This document shows positions 6,569 to 42,283 of a stretch of DNA of 64,000 nucleotides, in pieces. Location of the stretch: assembly GCA_964354495.1 (NCBI GenBank), contig CAYHAA010000002.1:80234-144233 (forward strand), given 5' to 3'. How positions within the stretch are numbered: position 1 is the stretch's first letter; each line of letters begins with the position of its first letter. The notes under the pieces are model-generated. The model was given only the letters and a program-made list of their open reading frames with translations. It made no database searches and was not told where the DNA came from. The position numbers and the translations under genes are program-made. The DNA comes from an uncultured archaeon (lineage in GTDB: Archaea > Asgardarchaeota > Thorarchaeia > Thorarchaeales > Thorarchaeaceae).

Positions 6569-6840
6569 CTCATGCGTTCCTCAAATAGGTGACAACGTCG
6601 ATTAGAGGCATGGTAGGTAAAAACAGTATCGACTCAGGATGTATTGAGTCAAAATGCGATAGCATCCTCTGATTGCCTCTAGTTCATTGGCTCAAAGAAA
6701 GTATGAGGAATCACTCACGACTGGTATCAAGCTGAGTAGTCACAATAATATCCCAAGAAACGGACTAAGTCCTCAAATCAACAGCTAGTCCTGGATTGTC
6801 GGGATCCGGTATATCATTGCAAGATGATCTCAGTCTCTTC

Positions 6841-8775
6841 TCACACTTCTCGTGAGAAAATCGGTTGTTTGGAAACGAGAAACGGCATCATGAGTCTCTG
6901 TTTGGGAGCGAACTTAGTCTTCTCTGAGACTTGCATAGCCAGCTCCTCAGTTGTCATAGTAACTTGGTCTTTGAGTTCTCGTCGTCTTACAGATAACTGG
7001 TGGCTTTCTCTCTCCTTATCGCCGACTACGCAGATGAAGGGTATCCAGAGCTTTTCAGCAGACCGAATCTTCTTGTTCAGAGTTTGCTGACGATCGTCGA
7101 CTTCGTAACGAATACCGTATTTCCCGAGGACCTTGCCGACATCTAGGCAATAGTCTAGCATATTCTCATTCAAGGGGACCAATCTTACCTGAACCGGCGT
7201 CATCCACAGAGGCAAATGGGGTGCCTTGCCAGCTTTCATGTCCTTGCTTGCCTGCTCCAAGACACCATACACAATTCTCTCAATTGATCCTGAGGGAGAA
7301 GTATGCAGAATCAAAGGATAGTGTTCCTTGCCTTCCTCATCCACATATCTGATGTTGAAGCGCTCACCGTTTTCTACGTCTATCTGAATAGTTGCAAGAC
7401 ACGCGGCTTTGAGTTGTTCGTCAACGACATTCCATTCACCCTTGAAAATGAAGTAAGCATAGCGTTCTTCGAACAGCTCGACCATGACAGGCTTGCCGAC
7501 TCCAGCAATGACACCGAGGACAAAGTCCTTGTTCTCTTCGAAGAATGATCTGAGCACCCGGAATGAGACCTCATAGGAGACCTCTAGCTCATTCATTAGT
7601 TTCTCAACAAATATCAGTTGACTCTTGACAGAAGTCTTTGCCATTTCAATATCAGCAACTATCTCATGGATATCCGGCATGGTGAATGCCCTGGGCCGTC
7701 GCATTCCAGCAAGCTCTCCACTCTGTTCCCGTCTGTAGGAAGGGGCGATCTCGAAGAGCTTCAGAGGCAGCTGCTTGTATGACACTTGTGCCTGAGAGAT
7801 CAGTAGGAATTGTCCAAAACACGCTGAGAAGCGGGCAAAGTAATCGCGGTCTCCGGAGCGCACAACATACTGTCGCGACGGAAATCTCTGCAGATACGAC
7901 TTCAATGAAGGATGAGCATAGTCGTAGATCAGAGGAGTCTGCACCACGTTAGCTCCATACTCAATCATTTCGGCAGTGACCCGTTCCTCAACGGTCCTCT
8001 TCAGAGTGAGGCCTCTTGGAGGCCATCTGAAGTTGCCCGCATCTGAACCAGGTTCATAGTCAACTAGCTCAAGGTTCTTCATTATCTCGATATGCGGAGG
8101 TGGTTCTTGGACAGTGCGATCCTTCGCAGTCTCATAGTTGATGTAGATCTCTAGTTCTTTGTACTTTGCATAATTGAACTTCTTCACATCCGTCATCTTA
8201 CCGTTCGGTTCGATGACAAAGAATTGTGAACTCGCTTTTTCCTCAGCCTGAAGAGCAGTGAGGTCCTCGCCCTCAGCTACCTCGACTTCAGCGGTCTTTG
8301 CCAGTTCCTTGGAAATGTCAAGGACCTTCGAACGCTCAGAAAGCGGATGGCCCTTACAATGGATTGAGAATGCCTTGTACCATCCGAACGGCGCACGTAC
8401 AACATGATAACCGCGTTTCTCAAGATTGGATGCTACGGCTTTGAGGAATTGCAGTCCAGCACTAGGTCTTGAAGGGTTCTCTGAGAGATGCACCCAAGGA
8501 TAGACTACAACGTTGGTTTCTTTGACTTCATCAGCAGCAGATGCAATCATGTCTGCAGTTTGCTTGGCAGAGCCCGATACATTACTCTCATCGCTCTTCT
8601 CGACAGCAATGAAATTCACTAAGCAAGAGTCTTCGGTTGCATATACTTTCTCTTTGATATCTTCGGCAGTCTTGAGAGCCTTCCTCTTAGCCTCGTAGCT
8701 GAATCCGTCGGTGTGTATCTGAAGCATTCTCATTCTAAGGACCTCAGTAATGGTATAGAGAAACCTATTTGCCAC
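6841..8775 (-). CDS. thrS: Threonyl-tRNA synthetase, archaeal type with N-terminal archaeal editing domain
   Basis: Class II aaRS motifs and a C-terminal anticodon-binding domain. The N-terminus MRMLQIHTDGFSYEA resembles the archaeal ThrRS editing domain. The track ORF starts at a GTG; an in-frame ATG at 8733 (MRMLQIH) is the more likely start. Confidence 0.85.
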   Translation of the reverse strand: MANRFLYTITEVLRMRMLQIHTDGFSYEAKRKALKTAEDIKEKVYATEDSCLVNFIAVEKSDESNVSGSAKQTADMIASAADEVKETNVVVYPWVHLSENPSRPSAGLQFLKAVASNLEKRGYHVVRAPFGWYKAFSIHCKGHPLSERSKVLDISKELAKTAEVEVAEGEDLTALQAEEKASSQFFVIEPNGKMTDVKKFNYAKYKELEIYINYETAKDRTVQEPPPHIEIMKNLELVDYEPGSDAGNFRWPPRGLTLKRTVEERVTAEMIEYGANVVQTPLIYDYAHPSLKSYLQRFPSRQYVVRSGDRDYFARFSACFGQFLLISQAQVSYKQLPLKLFEIAPSYRREQSGELAGMRRPRAFTMPDIHEIVADIEMAKTSVKSQLIFVEKLMNELEVSYEVSFRVLRSFFEENKDFVLGVIAGVGKPVMVELFEERYAYFIFKGEWNVVDEQLKAACLATIQIDVENGERFNIRYVDEEGKEHYPLILHTSPSGSIERIVYGVLEQASKDMKAGKAPHLPLWMTPVQVRLVPLNENMLDYCLDVGKVLGKYGIRYEVDDRQQTLNKKIRSAEKLWIPFICVVGDKERESHQLSVRRRELKDQVTMTTEELAMQVSEKTKFAPKQRLMMPFLVSKQPIFSREV

Positions 8776-11994: not shown

Positions 11995-12858
11995 ATGTGC
12001 GAGTGGTGTTTCAAGCACGGAGCTGGAAAAAGATGGTACCTTAACTCCAAGAATTACCTGGAGCAGACAGCACGGGAAACAAATGCTCACGAATATATTT
12101 TCGAGCTCTGGAAGCAATTCGAGAAGATCTATCTCCAGAAGATCTATGGCATCTCAATGAAAGGACCGGGATACAAGTTCAGCACGCCCATTGTTGGCAG
12201 AGCATTGAAAGGCTATGTGAATTCATGGTTCCGCAAGGAGAAGGGAATACGCAACCCCCGGCGTGGCGAAGGGCATCCCGGTCAAGTTGTGACTCTAGAA
12301 GATGCCAAGAAGATACTTGAAATTGCCAGTCCAGTCTTGAAGGTCAATTGTGCGTGTCGACAGATGAGCCGTGGAATCCAGGATCCATGCTGTCTCACAT
12401 TTGGAGCCCTTGCCGAGGAGGTTCCGAAGCTGCCAAGATTCATTCCTGAACGGGGGGCGGAGTGGCTTCATGTGGATGAGGCTCAAGACTTCGTTGAAAC
12501 TATGAACAGATCCGGTCGTGTAAACACGGTCTGGTTTGGACCTATTCCATACATCGCGGCTCTCTGCAGCTGCGAGAGACCGGAGTGCGCTGCAGCTAGG
12601 ATCAGAATGGAGTATGGCCTCAAGTTCTTGTACAAGGGCGAATACGTCGCCCAAGTCAATTTCGAGAAATGCAACGGGTGCGCAGTCTGTAATTCTCGTT
12701 GTCAATTTGGTGCTCTGACATTTAACAGCTTGATGAATGCGCCATATATTGATGCTAGGCGGTGCTTCGGATGCAGTCTGTGTGCTACTGCGTGTCCTGA
12801 GAACGCCATTCAGATGGTGGACAGAAATGAGAATCCTGTCCTGAAGGATGTGTGGTAG
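11995..12858 (+). CDS. Fe-S protein: uncharacterised Cys-rich N-terminal domain plus C-terminal 2x[4Fe-4S] ferredoxin domain
   Basis: Two CxxCxxCxxxCP-type motifs (CNGCAVCNSRC, CFGCSLCATACPEN) at the C-terminus. The N-terminal domain carries a CEWC pair, CACRQ, CC and CSCERPEC motifs; I do not recognise its family. Confidence 0.5.
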   Translation: MCEWCFKHGAGKRWYLNSKNYLEQTARETNAHEYIFELWKQFEKIYLQKIYGISMKGPGYKFSTPIVGRALKGYVNSWFRKEKGIRNPRRGEGHPGQVVTLEDAKKILEIASPVLKVNCACRQMSRGIQDPCCLTFGALAEEVPKLPRFIPERGAEWLHVDEAQDFVETMNRSGRVNTVWFGPIPYIAALCSCERPECAAARIRMEYGLKFLYKGEYVAQVNFEKCNGCAVCNSRCQFGALTFNSLMNAPYIDARRCFGCSLCATACPENAIQMVDRNENPVLKDVW

Positions 12859-13080
12859 ATGAAGACGAAGATTGTAGTTGACTACGACAAATGCAAGGAC
12901 CCCCGAGTGTGCAAGAAGTGCCTCCAAATCTGTCCTCCAGCCATCTTCATCCTGTACTCTCCAGACTACATCAACAATGATCCTACTGATTGGAGGGTAG
13001 ACGTGGCATTCACAGATCTCTGCACGAGATGCAATCAATGTGTTAATGTCTGCCCCTTAGATGCTATCACAATCAAGTAA
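12859..13080 (+). CDS. Small dicluster 4Fe-4S ferredoxin
   Basis: CKKCLQICP and CTRCNQCVNVCP motifs at 73 aa. Its ATG immediately follows the stop of the upstream Fe-S gene. Confidence 0.55.
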   Translation: MKTKIVVDYDKCKDPRVCKKCLQICPPAIFILYSPDYINNDPTDWRVDVAFTDLCTRCNQCVNVCPLDAITIK

Positions 13081-33636: not shown

Positions 33637-34149
33637 TTGACTTGCAAAAGGGATTATTCCCAGAGAGGAGAACGGTTCAGCGCTGCATTGAGTTCAGCAT
33701 CCAACTGGGGAATGATAATGAAAGACAAAAGCGAACTGCTTGCAAAGCTCATTCTGGAGGAGAGCATCAGCGCGATTGCGGTCCTAAGTGAGAGGACCGG
33801 CCTGAAAACAGACGAAGTTGTTGAAATGATAGCCGAACTCAAGAGTAAGGGCAGACTGAACGGTTCATTGACAGAAGATGGCTCGCGTTTCTTCAAGAGT
33901 ACTGTAAAGGTCTCTGATGCACGAGTAATTCCCAGGGAAGAGAAGCTTCCAGAGTTTCTATCCTATAATACGAAACCTGGAAAAGTGACAGCCATTGTCG
34001 GTCTTCTGATCCTTGTTTCCGGAGCGGTAATCACTGTTCTCGCCTCGGATATAGAGGAACAGAACTTCGCAGCAGTCCTCATACTCATCGGACTGCTTGT
34101 GTTCTTACTCGGCCTCTATCTCATCGCTCGAAGGGGCTCGCCGAGCTGA
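33637..34149 (+). CDS. Membrane-anchored winged-helix protein (hypothetical)
   Basis: N-terminal HTH-like segment (ISAIAVLSERTGLKTDEVVEMIAELKSKGRL) and two C-terminal TM helices. Confidence 0.3.
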   Translation: MTCKRDYSQRGERFSAALSSASNWGMIMKDKSELLAKLILEESISAIAVLSERTGLKTDEVVEMIAELKSKGRLNGSLTEDGSRFFKSTVKVSDARVIPREEKLPEFLSYNTKPGKVTAIVGLLILVSGAVITVLASDIEEQNFAAVLILIGLLVFLLGLYLIARRGSPS

Positions 34150-36579: not shown

Positions 36580-36629
36580 AGAAAAAAGAGAGATGATGGT
36601 AGTTCCATAGCTACCATCACTCCTTGAAC

Positions 36630-37703
36630 CTAGTCTTTCCAATCCAGAGTTTCAAAATCCCGCAACTTCTTCCACTGAGCAGCCCCGGCAATGGCAGCAA
36701 TAATCAAGAGAGAAACCAGGAACACTGCGAAATTCTGATAGGCATTGAAGCTGTCAGCGAAGAACCAGAACCAGAGCGTCAGGACCACTAACCATGCGAA
36801 ACCTATGCCAATTGAGAACCAGCTCTCTGGGCCTTCGCCTCTCACTCGTGCCCATGGAAGCCACAGACCTAGAGCGAGCAATCCGAAGATCACGAAAGAG
36901 AGAAGGACTGTTCCAACATTCTGGTTTCCTGAGAACATCCCAGCAAAGAACCACATCCAGATGATGATGAACACAACCCATAGAATGAATCCAATGGCTG
37001 AGAGCTTCACTCTCTTTTCAGCACCCTCTCCTGCCTCAACTTCAATTCTCATTTCTTTGCGCCATGGCAAAGCAACTATTCCTACCATCACAAGAAAGGA
37101 TGTTAAGATCACTGCAACAGCGTGGTATGCGTCAAGTCCGAGGTCGTTCGCAAAAGGCAGGAACAGAACCATGAACATAAGCCACCCAATGCCTCCAATC
37201 GCACTCACACGTGCCCCCCAGGCGTCGCCATGGCTTGGGACCCACAGCAGCACATTGAAAGCTCCTACTGTCAGCAGCGATGCAAGAGCTATGCCAATGT
37301 TCTCATAGATGCCGAAGCCGCCAGAGAAGAAGATGATCCAAATGGCGAGAAACACTAACCAGATCAGTGCTCCAATTGCACTGGTCCTGGCTTTGATGCC
37401 TTCTCGATCTGATGGAATCCAGAGGATTGAGTTCAAAGCAACAACAACAAGTAGCGCCACAAATACAACTGCAATATTCTCAAAGATGCCATATGCGCCT
37501 GCGAAAAAGAACAGCCACAGAATGAGAAATGCCATCCACACAATGAAGCTGCCCAGAGAGGCGTATGCCTTAAGCGTAGGCATTCTATGGCCATGCTTCT
37601 TCTCTGCTTTCTTTCTTATTTCATCTTCGAGGTCGAATGGCTCCTTCTCAGCATCATCAGATGGCTTTTCAGAAGGAGCATCATCTTCATTATTGGACTT
37701 CAT
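36630..37703 (-). CDS. Integral membrane protein built from five tandem ~55-aa two-TM hairpin repeats, with an acidic N-terminal cytoplasmic tail
   Basis: Repeats share the pattern S(A)IG..W..F....W..FF.G.....N...........L......W.P: KAYASLGSFIVW..., KARTSAIGALIW..., ARVSAIGGIGW..., KLSAIGFILW..., SWFSIGIGFAW.... The start is set at the MKSNNEDD ATG (37703), not the upstream track start. Confidence 0.5.
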   Translation of the reverse strand: MKSNNEDDAPSEKPSDDAEKEPFDLEDEIRKKAEKKHGHRMPTLKAYASLGSFIVWMAFLILWLFFFAGAYGIFENIAVVFVALLVVVALNSILWIPSDREGIKARTSAIGALIWLVFLAIWIIFFSGGFGIYENIGIALASLLTVGAFNVLLWVPSHGDAWGARVSAIGGIGWLMFMVLFLPFANDLGLDAYHAVAVILTSFLVMVGIVALPWRKEMRIEVEAGEGAEKRVKLSAIGFILWVVFIIIWMWFFAGMFSGNQNVGTVLLSFVIFGLLALGLWLPWARVRGEGPESWFSIGIGFAWLVVLTLWFWFFADSFNAYQNFAVFLVSLLIIAAIAGAAQWKKLRDFETLDWKD

Positions 37704-37834
37704 AAGTTCAACTCTCCAACCAATCTGGAACCTCTGTACGCGCAAGCCCCTTAAATCGCTTTGGAATAGCACGGAGATTCCATTATCATGGCATATCCTA
37801 CATAACAATAGTTAAATGAAGTTCTCTTGGGATT

Positions 37835-38323
37835 ATGGGGATGATGGAGGAGCGAAACGTGTCAGAAGAAAAAATGACGATTGAAGAATTCCACAAGAGA
37901 ATGGCTATCAATACGAATAACGGCATCTGGCCTATCCTAGATAAATCAGCGCCCACGAAAGATGAGCTCGAAGAGGCACTTCATATGGCACACACGTCTC
38001 TCTATCATTGGAGTGAGGTGGGTCAGCCGATCAATATTGCGCGAGCAGAATACATGGTTTCACGAGTCTACTGTGCCTTCTCATGGGCAGAGCCTGCGCT
38101 CTATCACGCTCAGAGATGTCTCAAACTTACTGAGGAGATAGGAACTGGCGACTTCGACCTAGCTTTCGCATACGAAGTAATGACCCGGGCATATTCGGTG
38201 GCAGGAGAGAAAGCAAGGTGCAAGAAGTATCGAGCCCTCACGCAGAAGGCCACAGATGCAGTAAAGAATGAAGAGGACCGTAAGATCTGCCAAGCGGAGC
38301 TTGATAAGATCAAATGCAGCTAG
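37835..38323 (+). CDS. Hypothetical soluble alpha-helical protein
   Basis: 162 aa with no motifs recognised. Its 3' end overlaps the long-ORF version of the PhzF gene. Confidence 0.3.
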   Translation: MGMMEERNVSEEKMTIEEFHKRMAINTNNGIWPILDKSAPTKDELEEALHMAHTSLYHWSEVGQPINIARAEYMVSRVYCAFSWAEPALYHAQRCLKLTEEIGTGDFDLAFAYEVMTRAYSVAGEKARCKKYRALTQKATDAVKNEEDRKICQAELDKIKCS

Positions 38324-39337: not shown

Positions 39338-39898
39338 TTGGAGCTGCAAGACTTGACTACACGCAATCCAATCTTTAAGGTAGCATTGATTGGAGAAGGT
39401 GGCGTCGGAAAGACAAGCCTAGCTGTACGTTACACTGAAGACCGATTCGACCAGCAGATGAAAATGACGATTGGTGTGAACTTCGCTACCAAGAGAGTCA
39501 ATGTCGCTGGTACTGACCTGACCCTCCTCATTTGGGACTTGGGCGGACAACCTAGATTCCAAGATGTGGTCATGGACTACTTCAAGGGTTCAAAACTAGG
39601 AATTGCGGTCTACGAGGTTAGCAGGTCTTTCACCATGTACAGGCTCGATAATTGGATTGCAAAGCTTCACAACAGTGTCCCCAACTGCGATATCTTTCTT
39701 GTAGGCAACAAGATCGATGAGCGTCTTCCGGGGATGGGAGTGACAAAAGAAGAGGCTCAGCAATTCGCGGATCAGTACCATGCTCAAGTCTTCGAAGTAT
39801 CAGCAAAGACAGGGGAGGGTGTAAGCCAGATGTTCGAGGCAGCAGGCAAAGTTCTCTCAGAGCGAAGCACTAAAACTAGTTCCGGAGTTGAACACTGA
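39338..39898 (+). CDS. Rab/Ras-like small GTPase
   Basis: G1 GEGGVGKTS, switch-I T in TIGVNF (a RabF1-like IGVxF), G3 WDLGGQ, G4 GNKID and G5 SAKTGEGV. There is no C-terminal Cys prenylation motif. Confidence 0.8.
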   Translation: MELQDLTTRNPIFKVALIGEGGVGKTSLAVRYTEDRFDQQMKMTIGVNFATKRVNVAGTDLTLLIWDLGGQPRFQDVVMDYFKGSKLGIAVYEVSRSFTMYRLDNWIAKLHNSVPNCDIFLVGNKIDERLPGMGVTKEEAQQFADQYHAQVFEVSAKTGEGVSQMFEAAGKVLSERSTKTSSGVEH

Positions 39899-39994
39899 GT
39901 CAATCCTGAATCGATTTGTACGCAGTATCATTAAATATCGCCTAGTATTCCTTAATCAAGGACCACTAGCAGATCGCAAGACGGAGACCTAGGC

Positions 39995-40255
39995 TTGGCA
40001 AAAGTGAAACTCAGACCGTTTGCTTGTCCCTCCTGTGGGCAAGGCAAACTGGTCTATGTGGAAGTCGATGAATTGACTATCACAAGAGCGAAACGGTTTC
40101 CAACCATCGTGCAAGCCAAGTGTGGAAAGGGCCATCCTTTGGTTGTCTTTGTCGATGCGAACTTTCAAGTTCGAGATGTCGAAGCTTCAGCTGTGGCGAC
40201 GGAAGAGGAAAAAGACGCAGTCGAGAAGACAAAGGGCTGGTTCGAGTCATTCTAG
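39995..40255 (+). CDS. Small Zn-ribbon protein
   Basis: CPSCGQ...(27 aa)...CGKGH four-ligand zinc ribbon and an acidic C-terminus, at 86 aa. Confidence 0.4.
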   Translation: MAKVKLRPFACPSCGQGKLVYVEVDELTITRAKRFPTIVQAKCGKGHPLVVFVDANFQVRDVEASAVATEEEKDAVEKTKGWFESF

Positions 40256-40420
40256 TCGTGAGATGCTACGAGGTTCAAGAGGCAGTGGAAAACGAATGGC
40301 ATGTGCCACTACGTGGGCATTTCGTTGCTTACGAATGGAAGTCTAGTGTTACGCTCGGACTCGAACACGAAGCTCCATGGTGCAGACGTGGATAGCACAT
40401 GGTAACGGGGACTAAACACG

Positions 40421-40855
40421 ATGTATGGAATCTTCGTCATCAATGATGCGGGTGAAACAATCGCTTCCGTAGGATGGGAGAACCTCGAAGGCGACACGGC
40501 ACTTATTGGTGGATTTGTCTCGGCACTACAGATGTTCATCAAGAAGATTTCCGGAAACGAGATGAACGAACTCCTTTTTGGCGAACTCAAGTTGCTTATC
40601 GGAAAAGCTGGAGACAACTATATTGTGACACTGCACTCGGTTGATGACAAAGAAGCCAAAGCCCACAATCGAGAGGTCATCAAATTCGTCACTGAACGGG
40701 GTGACGAGATCGATGACGGTGTTCTCATCTTGGTCAACGAGATGATATCCGGTGAAACTACTCCTGAGGAAGAAGAGAAGGTGCGTCGCGGCGTACGCGA
40801 ATGGACAAGCGGAGCAGGTACGGCTGCAAAAGAGTGGGGAAAGAAGGTGTTTTAG
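40421..40855 (+). CDS. Roadblock/LC7 (MglB-like) or longin-like domain protein
   Basis: The segment GIFVINDAGETIASVGWEN...DTALIGGFVSALQMF...GELKLLIGKAGDNYIVTLHSV matches the roadblock alpha-beta-alpha pattern. It is followed by an acidic or Lys-rich tail. Confidence 0.5.
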   Translation: MYGIFVINDAGETIASVGWENLEGDTALIGGFVSALQMFIKKISGNEMNELLFGELKLLIGKAGDNYIVTLHSVDDKEAKAHNREVIKFVTERGDEIDDGVLILVNEMISGETTPEEEEKVRRGVREWTSGAGTAAKEWGKKVF

Positions 40856-40867
40856 GAGGACAAGTTC

Positions 40868-42283
40868 ATGGAAGTATACGAGATAGCATATGTGTTTCTT
40901 GGACTGGCAACATTAGTGGCCGCTGGAACCATTATTAACTATAGTCACAAGAGATCCGTAGCATCTCCGGACCCTGAGATTAAGAAAGCCTTCAGACCGC
41001 TCTATATCTTCGCCATCGGTCTAATCGTTTTTGGAATTGGAGCTCTGCTTACATTCCTCGTGCGCAACAATCAGATTTTCCCATGGGATGATACTTCTTT
41101 CGTCAGATTGCATAATCCGTACCTGAGATATTACACGATATTCTATGTATTCACTCTTGTTGAGTTGTTCTTCCTGACTATCGCAGCTGCGATGATTCTG
41201 AAACAATGGTTGATTTCTGTATTCATGGCCATTATGATTCTTATTGCGTTTCTTCTAATCTTCAATGCTGTTCTAATCGTCGAAGACATGAGAACAAGCA
41301 ATGTGGCGGAATTCTATATCAATTTTGGTAACGTATTGAGTATAATTCTGCTATCTGCAAATGCTGCCCTTTTTTCATGGATAGCAAATGATACAAGAAG
41401 GAGCACTAGCATGGCATTGGGCTACGCTATGATTGTGCAAGTCCTAGCAGTTCCACGTTTCTATGCAATACTGCCAACAGAACTGATATTCGCAATTACT
41501 GTCTTCGCACTTATGGGTCCAGCAATGATTGCTTTTGCGTTTCTGCGGCCGGACCAGAAGATATCAGTTGAACTCCTTGGTTATGGCGCCAGCTTTGCTG
41601 GGCCGGTTGTCATCTTCGCCAGTCTCATTTCGGCAGAACTTATCTCTAATCCCTTTATTGTTATTATAGCAGTATTTGGAGCAATAGCTATTGCCTTGGC
41701 GACTGGAACAGCTTCATACGCCTATGGCAGGTGGAGAGAGACTCGTCAGCTGCCTACAGCATTACTGATGGTCATCTTCGCAGCTATAGCGGCAGGACAA
41801 ATGATTGGCATGTTGGGTACCTTTCAGGTACTGCCGAACCTATGGTCAATTTACTTTGATTTTGCCGTGACTTCCTTTGCACTGGCTGTTTTCACATCTG
41901 TGGGAATCATGGCAGCCGGATATCGCACCTTGGCGTCATTACCCCTACTAGTCTATCTGCCAACAGCGATACTCATTACTCAACGCTTTCCGAATTCAAT
42001 CAGCCAGGCGTTTCTTGATTACGCCTATCTCGCAATTCCGGCGATGCTGTTCTTCTTCGTACCAGTGTTCCTTTTTGCAGGAGCTTGGAGGAGAATGAAG
42101 AAAGCTGGAACTGCTGGGAGAATGAGACCACTGGGGATGTCGGTTGGATTATTGCTGTTCTTAATAATCAGAGTCGCTTCTCTTCTCGCCGACATTCAAT
42201 TTGGAGATCCTGGTTACGGATTGGTGGCAATTGCGCTTGCAGTCCTCTGGTTGTCAATCACTGGCAGACTCGATAGATACTAG
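40868..42283 (+). CDS. Large polytopic membrane protein (about 12-14 TM), hypothetical
   Basis: Hydrophobic throughout. It starts 12 bp after the roadblock-like gene stop on the same strand. Confidence 0.45.
   Translation: MEVYEIAYVFLGLATLVAAGTIINYSHKRSVASPDPEIKKAFRPLYIFAIGLIVFGIGALLTFLVRNNQIFPWDDTSFVRLHNPYLRYYTIFYVFTLVELFFLTIAAAMILKQWLISVFMAIMILIAFLLIFNAVLIVEDMRTSNVAEFYINFGNVLSIILLSANAALFSWIANDTRRSTSMALGYAMIVQVLAVPRFYAILPTELIFAITVFALMGPAMIAFAFLRPDQKISVELLGYGASFAGPVVIFASLISAELISNPFIVIIAVFGAIAIALATGTASYAYGRWRETRQLPTALLMVIFAAIAAGQMIGMLGTFQVLPNLWSIYFDFAVTSFALAVFTSVGIMAAGYRTLASLPLLVYLPTAILITQRFPNSISQAFLDYAYLAIPAMLFFFVPVFLFAGAWRRMKKAGTAGRMRPLGMSVGLLLFLIIRVASLLADIQFGDPGYGLVAIALAVLWLSITGRLDRY

Follow-up and report, generated by a model that had tools for sequence, protein, structure and literature searches.

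A five-hairpin membrane protein of Thorarchaeota and its archaeal relatives with one to five hairpins per chain

The hairpin gene and its five repeat units

The window analysed here is a 64,000-nucleotide stretch of DNA from an uncultured archaeon of the Thorarchaeaceae (assembly GCA_964354495.1, contig CAYHAA010000002.1, positions 80,234 to 144,233), and our subject is a single gene within it, on the minus strand at 36630..37703, which encodes a membrane protein made of five tandem helical hairpins that we call R1 to R5. The open reading frame (ORF) opens with an ATG and encodes 357 residues and a stop. A longer version from a TTG codon at 37808 is possible in principle, but the sequence makes it an unlikely start, since the orthologues share the same Met, with M1, P3 and D5 near-invariant, and since a GGAG lies 10 nucleotides upstream of the ATG. 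The N-termini of the orthologues conserve an MKPxD start. The parts of the gene are as follows.

36630..37703, minus strand: complete coding sequence for a 357-residue membrane protein with ten transmembrane (TM) helices in five hairpins, from the ORF list and translation; stop codon at 36630-36632
37581..37703, minus strand: N-terminal tail, residues 1-41, predicted to be cytoplasmic; acidic, then polybasic beside the membrane, and predicted to be disordered except for a short helix
37386..37580, minus strand: R1 hairpin, residues 42-106, with helices at 43-66 and 73-94
37209..37385, minus strand: R2 hairpin, residues 107-165, with helices at 100-129 and 132-154; nearest to R1 (41% identity, z = 18.7)
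37005..37208, minus strand: R3 hairpin, residues 166-233, the divergent unit, with a conserved WLPF (a Pro in helix 1), a longer outside turn, a long charged loop to R4 and the lowest z scores (6.9-9.2)
36819..37004, minus strand: R4 hairpin, residues 234-295, ending with a near-invariant loop, predicted to be cytoplasmic, WLPWARxRGEGPESW (residues 281-295, nucleotides 36819-36863)
36633..36818, minus strand: R5 hairpin, residues 296-357, the best-conserved unit, including a C-terminal motif predicted to be cytoplasmic, QWKKxRDFExxDWxD (residues 343-357, nucleotides 36633-36677)

The preliminary description of this gene, made by reading the sequence, had proposed five back-to-back hairpins of about 55 residues each. 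The internal repetition is highly significant: all ten pairwise Smith-Waterman scores among R1 to R5 beat every one of 500 composition-preserving shuffles (z = 6.9-18.7). Additionally, a profile built from 25 single-hairpin proteins of archaea other than Thorarchaeota (the single-hairpin profile below) matched this ORF at E = 5.4e-66 as five separate domains, and matched no other ORF in the window. The five tandem units therefore stand, while their proposed length does not, the units being 59-68 residues long. R2 to R5 are 29-41% identical to R1, and no tandem repeat was found in the gene at the DNA level, from which we take the duplication to be ancient.

The motifs that had been picked out by eye hold for most of the units, with R3 and R5 departing from them. 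S/A-I-G and a Trp-rich first helix are present in all five. R1, R2 and R4 have ends of the FF(A/S)G type, which R5 replaces by FFAD and R3 by LPFAND. The Asn motif of the turn reads FEN in R1, YEN in R2, NQN in R4 and YQN in R5, and in R3 of this protein it is replaced by YHA (the consensus of R3 in the family is YQN). The W-x-P ending is found only in R1, R2 and R4, and is absent from both R3 and R5.

Conservation is likewise unevenly spread along the chain. In the Thorarchaeota alignment the lowest mean column entropies in the protein are those of R5 (0.91 bits) and of the C-terminal tail (0.72 bits). The N-terminal tail has on average 10.5 Lys and Arg and 14.7 Asp and Glu across the family, and its confidence in the AlphaFold2 model described below (predicted local distance difference test, pLDDT) falls under 50 at residues 1-24 and 34-41.

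A family with one to five hairpins per chain

A word-indexed search returned 105 orthologue clusters, almost all of about 357-385 residues and labelled Thorarchaeota, at 38-90% identity; one Sifarchaeia record and one partial record labelled 'Bathyarchaeota' are among them. Their names are either hypothetical or plainly automatic, such as the 'MFS family permease' of some sources. An exhaustive hidden Markov model search with an alignment of 74 five-repeat orthologues (the five-repeat alignment below) reached considerably further, giving 239 representatives at E <= 1e-3. The lengths of these matches fall in steps of about 360, 280-300, 235, 150-160 and 70-110 residues, which correspond to five, four, three, two and one hairpins carrying the same motifs. 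Counting hairpins in 346 family proteins, a sample biased by the way in which it was collected, gave 96 proteins with one, 92 with two, 21 with three, 41 with four and 96 with five, and none with more than five. The single-hairpin profile, when run against the database, retrieved mostly two-hairpin proteins of 150-180 residues, which are unannotated. No fused soluble domains were found among the longer homologues.

The preliminary description had suggested looking for the repeat in other archaeal genomes, and it proves to be spread over many archaeal lineages. When one genome of each prokaryotic species was scanned, the bulk of the hairpin modules lay in Thermoplasmatota and Methanomassiliicoccales, with further members in Bathyarchaeia, Nitrososphaera/Nitrosopumilales, Archaeoglobaceae, Methanophagales and Methanocellales, and others again in Thermococci, Methanofastidiosum, Aenigmatarchaeota and Micrarchaeota. 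The five-repeat forms are nearly all labelled Thorarchaeota, and so are the four-repeat variants, apart from one labelled Lokiarchaeota. No viral relative was found in 2.9 million IMG/VR viral contigs, and our literature searches found no description of the family.

Three smaller observations concern its membership. Four-hairpin forms of about 280-300 residues (P0109-P0121), apparently lacking one unit of the R2/R3 type, are present in the phylum beside the five-hairpin form. In at least one Thorarchaeota metagenome-assembled genome (MAG) two multi-hairpin paralogues are encoded together, P0066 (JW779_10805) and P0098 (JW779_07085). Two members carry bacterial names, L010 from a 1.5-kb contig of a Syntrophaceae MAG and P0428 from '[Eubacterium] cellulosolvens', all other placed members being archaeal; these two probably reflect mis-binning or contamination, with rare transfer as a possibility.

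The family had gone unrecognised in the preliminary description, and the libraries bear this out, as the hairpin protein has no place in Pfam, NCBIfam, PHROGs, PADLOC or the PDB. NCBIfam, PHROGs and PADLOC gave scattered weak matches and no consistent family, and a PDB sequence search with the family profiles returned nothing below E = 0.37. A match to a well-characterised family such as MFS would have told against the reading as a new repeat family. Neither the window protein nor any of the 74 orthologues matches MFS_1, and no transporter family was matched above its curated cut-off; a precomputed PF07690 match is present in 2 of 120 two-hairpin relatives. PF00137 and PF01544 were without a match in the scans of the protein, of its orthologues and of the single-hairpin proteins (the PF00137 scans being run at E <= 10, 0.1 or 1). 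DUF2207_C (PF20990) is approached by 28 of the 74 orthologues at 14-17 bits, against a cut-off of 33 bits, over just the basic tail and the first hairpin, and we rejected it.

The only match in a curated library was to PEN-2 (PF10251), at E = 1.9e-6 and 28.6 bits, where the gathering score is 25 bits. What the two proteins share is one Trp-rich TM helix, a 20-residue segment of the pattern S-A-x-G-x3-W-x6-W-x2-F that resembles the last TM helix of human PEN-2. The match occurs in only two of the 74 orthologues, namely the window protein and its 90%-identical twin, and the single-hairpin relatives reach at most 12.3 bits against PF10251. Neither the five-repeat alignment nor the single-hairpin profile retrieves a PEN-2 chain from the PDB at E <= 10, though human PEN-2 is present there (5a63_D), and against human PEN-2 itself neither does better than 1000 shuffles. 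A profile pooled from the Thorarchaeota repeats reaches 4.6 bits against human PEN-2, a score equalled by 7 of 1000 shuffles, and all of it comes from one 20-residue helix, SAVGFLFWVIVLTSWITIFQ. Comparison by hhalign with 27 diverse metazoan PEN-2 sequences gave probabilities of 3.6% and 5.2% over 23-25 columns, the length of a single helix, and the Pfam alignment covers helix 2 of R3 together with helix 1 of R4, out of register with the repeat unit. The two proteins also differ in build: PEN-2 has about 100 residues, forming a re-entrant hairpin and one TM helix with its termini on opposite sides, whereas the window protein has 357 residues, ten full-length predicted TM helices and repeated hairpins with both ends inside. 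Given the absence of the match from the family as a whole, the shuffle and hhalign results and the shifted register, we read it from these comparisons as a likeness of one Trp-rich helix and not as homology. An above-threshold Pfam match to PEN-2 in an Asgard archaeon would then be a false lead, and not evidence for a gamma-secretase cofactor.

Thus, that the gene encodes a five-hairpin protein, and that this protein belongs to an unannotated and almost exclusively archaeal family, we regard as close to certain. The fusion of hairpin modules in tandem is a known principle; what is new is the family itself, which was previously unannotated and lacks a significant counterpart among solved structures.

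Topology, covariation and the proposed assembly

With the five-repeat alignment as input, AlphaFold2 gave a model with a mean pLDDT of 83.2 and a predicted template-modelling score (pTM) of 0.72, in which ten helices (43-66, 73-94, 100-129, 132-154, 161-188, 192-214, 228-256, 259-287, 292-318 and 321-351) are joined within hairpins by turns of 2-6 residues. A two-hairpin homologue of the Thermoplasmata type, P0404, was modelled from 120 sequences with higher confidence still (pLDDT 91.1, pTM 0.82). Foldseek searches of the predicted folds against the PDB gave no significant solved counterpart (E > 1). Lys and Arg are confined to the N-terminal tail, the loops between repeats and the C-terminal tail, with family means of 1.4-3.5 per loop against 0.0-0.2 per hairpin turn, and each turn carries about one Asp or Glu. 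By the positive-inside rule, this distribution would make the termini and the loops between repeats cytoplasmic, with the turns outside, and would give all hairpins the same orientation.

We used a column profile of 688 non-identical hairpin domains (effective number of sequences, Neff, 288) to describe the unit common to the whole family. Helix 1 conserves S/T2, W9, F12, W16 (93%), F19 and A21; Y/F24 is conserved at the turn; and helix 2 conserves Y27, Q/E28, N29 (91%), A/G31, I/V32, S36, L38, W48 (92%) and P50. The conserved residues of helix 1 form a heptad a/d stripe, and this stripe (S2-W9-F12-W16-F19) packs on a small or polar stripe of helix 2 (N29-I/V32-S36). The Y-Q/E-N motif forms the first turn of helix 2, beside the hairpin turn. 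The halves of the helices in the outer leaflet are more conserved than those in the inner leaflet by 0.62 bits (permutation p = 0.001). Neither helix has a conserved Asp or Glu in the 688-hairpin profile, and the sole Q/E position, 28, lies at the outer end.

Mean-field direct coupling analysis (DCA) of the same domains ranked the pair W9-S36 first, followed by S5-N44, F12-S36, L13-S36, S2-N44, L17-V33, G6-V40, S2-W48, A21-N29 and W9-V39. The positions in these top pairs sum to about 45-52, as expected of an antiparallel hairpin, so that the unit is supported independently of AlphaFold. The couplings also suggest that S36 and N29 are at least partly residues of packing and of stapling of the turn. 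For 196 two-hairpin proteins (Neff 117) the analysis gave, besides pairs within hairpins, antiparallel pairs between helices 1 and 4 and between helices 2 and 3; these would be compatible with a closed four-helix bundle, and are too noisy to be relied upon. The five-repeat alignment has an Neff of 40 over its 357 columns.

The explanation that we favour, with a probability of roughly 45%, is that the Thorarchaeota protein is the single-chain, internally differentiated form of a self-associating hairpin assembly, channel-like in nature. Stand-alone proteins of 70-110 residues with a single hairpin, and proteins with two to four, are hard to picture as functional unless the hairpins associate with one another. 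Homologues with one to three hairpins would thus lie side by side through their TM helices to make a multi-hairpin bundle, and the five-hairpin protein would be such an assembly fixed in one chain, whose five positions would later have specialised, R3 by diverging and the R4-R5 loop and the C-terminal tail by taking on strongly conserved cytoplasmic motifs. An aromatic and amide belt (W16, F19, Y24, Y27, Q/E28 and N29) may form a mouth or filter together with the acidic, base-free outer turns, and the charged cytoplasmic tails and loops may regulate the channel or dock partners. The preliminary description had suggested a self-assembling channel or scaffold on the strength of a five-fold repetition. 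Self-assembly gains from the finding that the hairpin also stands alone and in two to four copies in many archaeal phyla, and strict five-fold symmetry is not borne out, R3 being divergent and the units having conserved features of their own.

That such an assembly functions as a channel-like bundle of parallel helices is a tentative proposal, to which we give somewhat less than an even chance. Where a family has both small self-associating modules and fused chains, as semiSWEET/SWEET and Fluc/FEX do, its members are typically channels or transporters, and subunits of one orientation suit rotationally symmetric pores. The best-conserved polar motif lies at the outer mouth, beside acidic and base-free turns, and the tails vary while the core in the membrane is conserved. 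The fullest version of this idea would be an undescribed, almost solely archaeal channel family with one to five hairpins per subunit and an outer mouth of Y-Q/E-N and aromatic residues, in which the Thorarchaeota form would be a pseudo-pentamer in one chain, regulated through cytoplasmic motifs of its own; stated as specifically as this, it is doubtful.

Known systems offer partial parallels. In semiSWEET/SWEET and in Fluc/FEX, a self-associating membrane module in some lineages is a fused and differentiated multi-module chain in others, and the hairpin family would show the same pattern. The folds and module sizes are other than those found here, where up to five modules of the same orientation are joined, and there was no sign of homology in our library and structure searches, none of which was aimed at these families. 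CorA/Mrs2 and MCU channels are also built on a two-TM hairpin with both ends inside and a very short outside loop, and their best-conserved polar motif (GMN in CorA, DxxE in MCU) marks the hairpin's outer end; CorA, moreover, assembles as a pentamer, and its C-terminus is basic. The position of Y-Q/E-N at the outer end makes for a loose analogy, without homology. The motif lies at the start of TM helix 2 in our family and at the end of TM helix 1 (GMN) in CorA, and unlike CorA the hairpin proteins lack a PF01544 match, a large cytoplasmic domain (the N-terminal tail is 41 residues long and disordered) and a polar stripe along a pore.

Several points weigh against a channel-like assembly. No hydrophilic pore-lining stripe is evident in the helices. 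S36 covaries most with W9 of its own hairpin, as a packing residue would, and the couplings of N29 are to A21 and Y24 at the turn, which Y-Q/E-N may therefore do nothing but staple. Chains of two, three, four and five copies cannot all close one ring of fixed size, and four-repeat paralogues exist within Thorarchaeota itself. The predicted models match no channel fold, and no conserved functional or transport-related neighbour was found in the 7 Thorarchaeota genomes and 68 other archaeal loci compared.

The main rival, which we think unlikely, is a non-conducting, self-associating scaffold or anchor within the membrane, whose function would reside in its charged cytoplasmic parts, namely polybasic tails in the small homologues and, in Thorarchaeota, the N-terminus, the R4-R5 loop and the C-terminal tail that are conserved there; these would recruit or organise partners or alter the membrane. 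Helices that are almost wholly hydrophobic or aromatic, with conserved polar residues that covary inside their own hairpin, are what such a protein might be expected to have. Moreover, the cytoplasmic C-terminal tail is the best-conserved segment in Thorarchaeota (0.72 bits), the R4-R5 loop is near-invariant, single-hairpin proteins often have long C-terminal tails rich in Lys and Arg, and a variable number of hairpins per chain suits an open-ended lateral array. However, across the family as a whole the tails vary in length, charge and position while the outer-leaflet half is conserved, which points to a function within the membrane or at its outer face, and no candidate partner is conserved in the neighbourhood of the 68 other archaeal loci.

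A monomeric ten-TM secondary transporter, in which the repeats are mere relics of evolution, is improbable. The ten helices, the compact and confident AlphaFold2 model and automatic labels of the 'MFS family permease' kind would all suit it, but the repeats share one orientation, so that there is no inverted repeat, the 74 orthologues scanned match neither the MFS model nor any other transporter family above its cut-off, and Foldseek finds nothing in the PDB with E below 1. The loops are tiny, the membrane-embedded segments contain no charged residues, and homologues of one hairpin cannot be monomeric transporters.

Another way to view the variable copy number is by comparison with the c/K subunits of A/V-ATPases, in which one membrane hairpin is used at 1, 2, 3 or 13 copies per chain in different archaea (PMC2359735). 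Like these proteolipids (PF00137), the hairpin proteins are very hydrophobic and use a two-TM hairpin as a building block, in variable copies per polypeptide that would lie side by side in the same orientation, and one could suppose that they are analogues or divergent relatives of c/K, forming a large ion-carrying ring of variable stoichiometry. This is very improbable. They differ in having no PF00137 match, no Gly-rich helix 1 and no mid-membrane Glu or Asp, in never occurring in an ATPase operon (no ATPase gene adjoins the hairpin gene in any of the 7 Thorarchaeota genomes or 68 other archaeal loci), and in the Trp/Phe-rich helix 1 and Y-Q/E-N turn motif that are specific to the family.

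More improbable still is a holin-like or viroporin-like lysis or toxin protein, or the gene of a mobile element. The small homologues, with two TM helices, both ends inside and a basic C-terminal tail, have the generic shape of class II holins, and there are sporadic weak matches to Phage_holin_3_6 (E = 0.033) and to PHROG membrane proteins. The shape, however, fits the single-hairpin relatives only, and a chain of up to five fused units does not resemble a holin; there is no phage or lysis-cassette context, no relative among the viral contigs searched and no consistent PHROG or PADLOC family. The synteny is instead stable and of a housekeeping kind, and members from different archaeal lineages align at 33-52% identity.

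Least probable of all is kinship with PEN-2, which would make the protein an archaeal equivalent of gamma-secretase's presenilin enhancer subunit. The Asgard host and the score above gathering level might recommend this reading, and the comparisons given earlier largely refute it, an archaeal presenilin homologue being moreover reported active without PEN-2 or other co-factors (PMC2947513).

If the favoured explanation is right, then a compact self-assembling module extends across most major archaeal lineages and is missing from the current family libraries and the PDB. It would also supply a natural series of fusions from one hairpin to five, useful for asking how oligomeric membrane assemblies turn into single chains with internal specialisation, for which the ATPase proteolipids are the well-known parallel. 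For structural biology, the family offers a predicted ten-helix fold without a significant solved counterpart, and a very confidently modelled four-helix relative as a starting point. On present evidence the finding has no bearing on a long-standing open question.

The genomic neighbourhood

The hairpin gene is monocistronic, being convergent with an SDR gene and divergent from an ORF of 162 codons. The same neighbourhood is kept in five of the seven Thorarchaeota genomes, namely the window and the four that carry P0066, P0025, P0080 and P0077, hairpin proteins with 49-58% identity to the one in the window; in the other two it is wholly different. On one side the conserved block comprises the ORF of about 160 codons, PhzF, a Ras-like GTPase, a small Zn-ribbon-like ORF, a 144-codon ORF and a multi-TM ORF of about 470 codons, and on the other SDR, GNAT, TauE and a winged-helix protein with a TM segment; for P0025 and P0077 the block was seen only in part. 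This is synteny at the level of the lineage, among genes unrelated to the hairpin protein. Of the 68 loci compared in other archaea, 12 share the most frequent neighbouring gene cluster, which lies on the opposite strand and falls within the synteny of Thermoplasmata.

The features around the gene in the window are these.

33637..34149, plus strand: small protein, winged-helix-like in its N-terminal part and with a TM segment at the C-terminus
36593..36620, minus strand: terminator-like stem-loop (10-bp stem) with a T-rich run, 10 nucleotides past the stop of the hairpin gene; a weak candidate from a simple consensus scan only, whose count was not above that in shuffles
37835..38323, plus strand: ORF of 162 codons without a Pfam match
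39338..39898, plus strand: small GTPase of the Ras/Roc/Arf type (Pfam Ras, 1.3e-39), heading a block that runs to 42283
39995..40255, plus strand: ORF of 86 codons with Cys pairs, without a Pfam match
40421..40855, plus strand: ORF of 144 codons without a Pfam match
40868..42283, plus strand: multi-TM ORF of 471 codons without a Pfam match

The 162-codon ORF is separated from the hairpin gene by 131 bp, and an ORF of like size is in place in five of the seven Thorarchaeota genomes. Some Thorarchaeota loci also have a CorA-family gene (L001/L002 at 12822-13077 and L085 at 6720-7009); at about 4-6 kb from the hairpin gene it is too distant, and its presence too inconsistent, to suggest a link between them. 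The winged-helix-like protein at 33637..34149 has sub-threshold Pfam matches to wHTH-PRTase_assc (1.4e-4) and to the eukaryotic DDRGK domain (4.3e-4). At least three Thorarchaeota genomes (the window and those of P0066 and P0080) share the whole block at 39338..42283 in synteny, the GTPase and part of the block being present within the stretch read for P0025 and P0077, and the block looks like an Asgard-style GTPase module.

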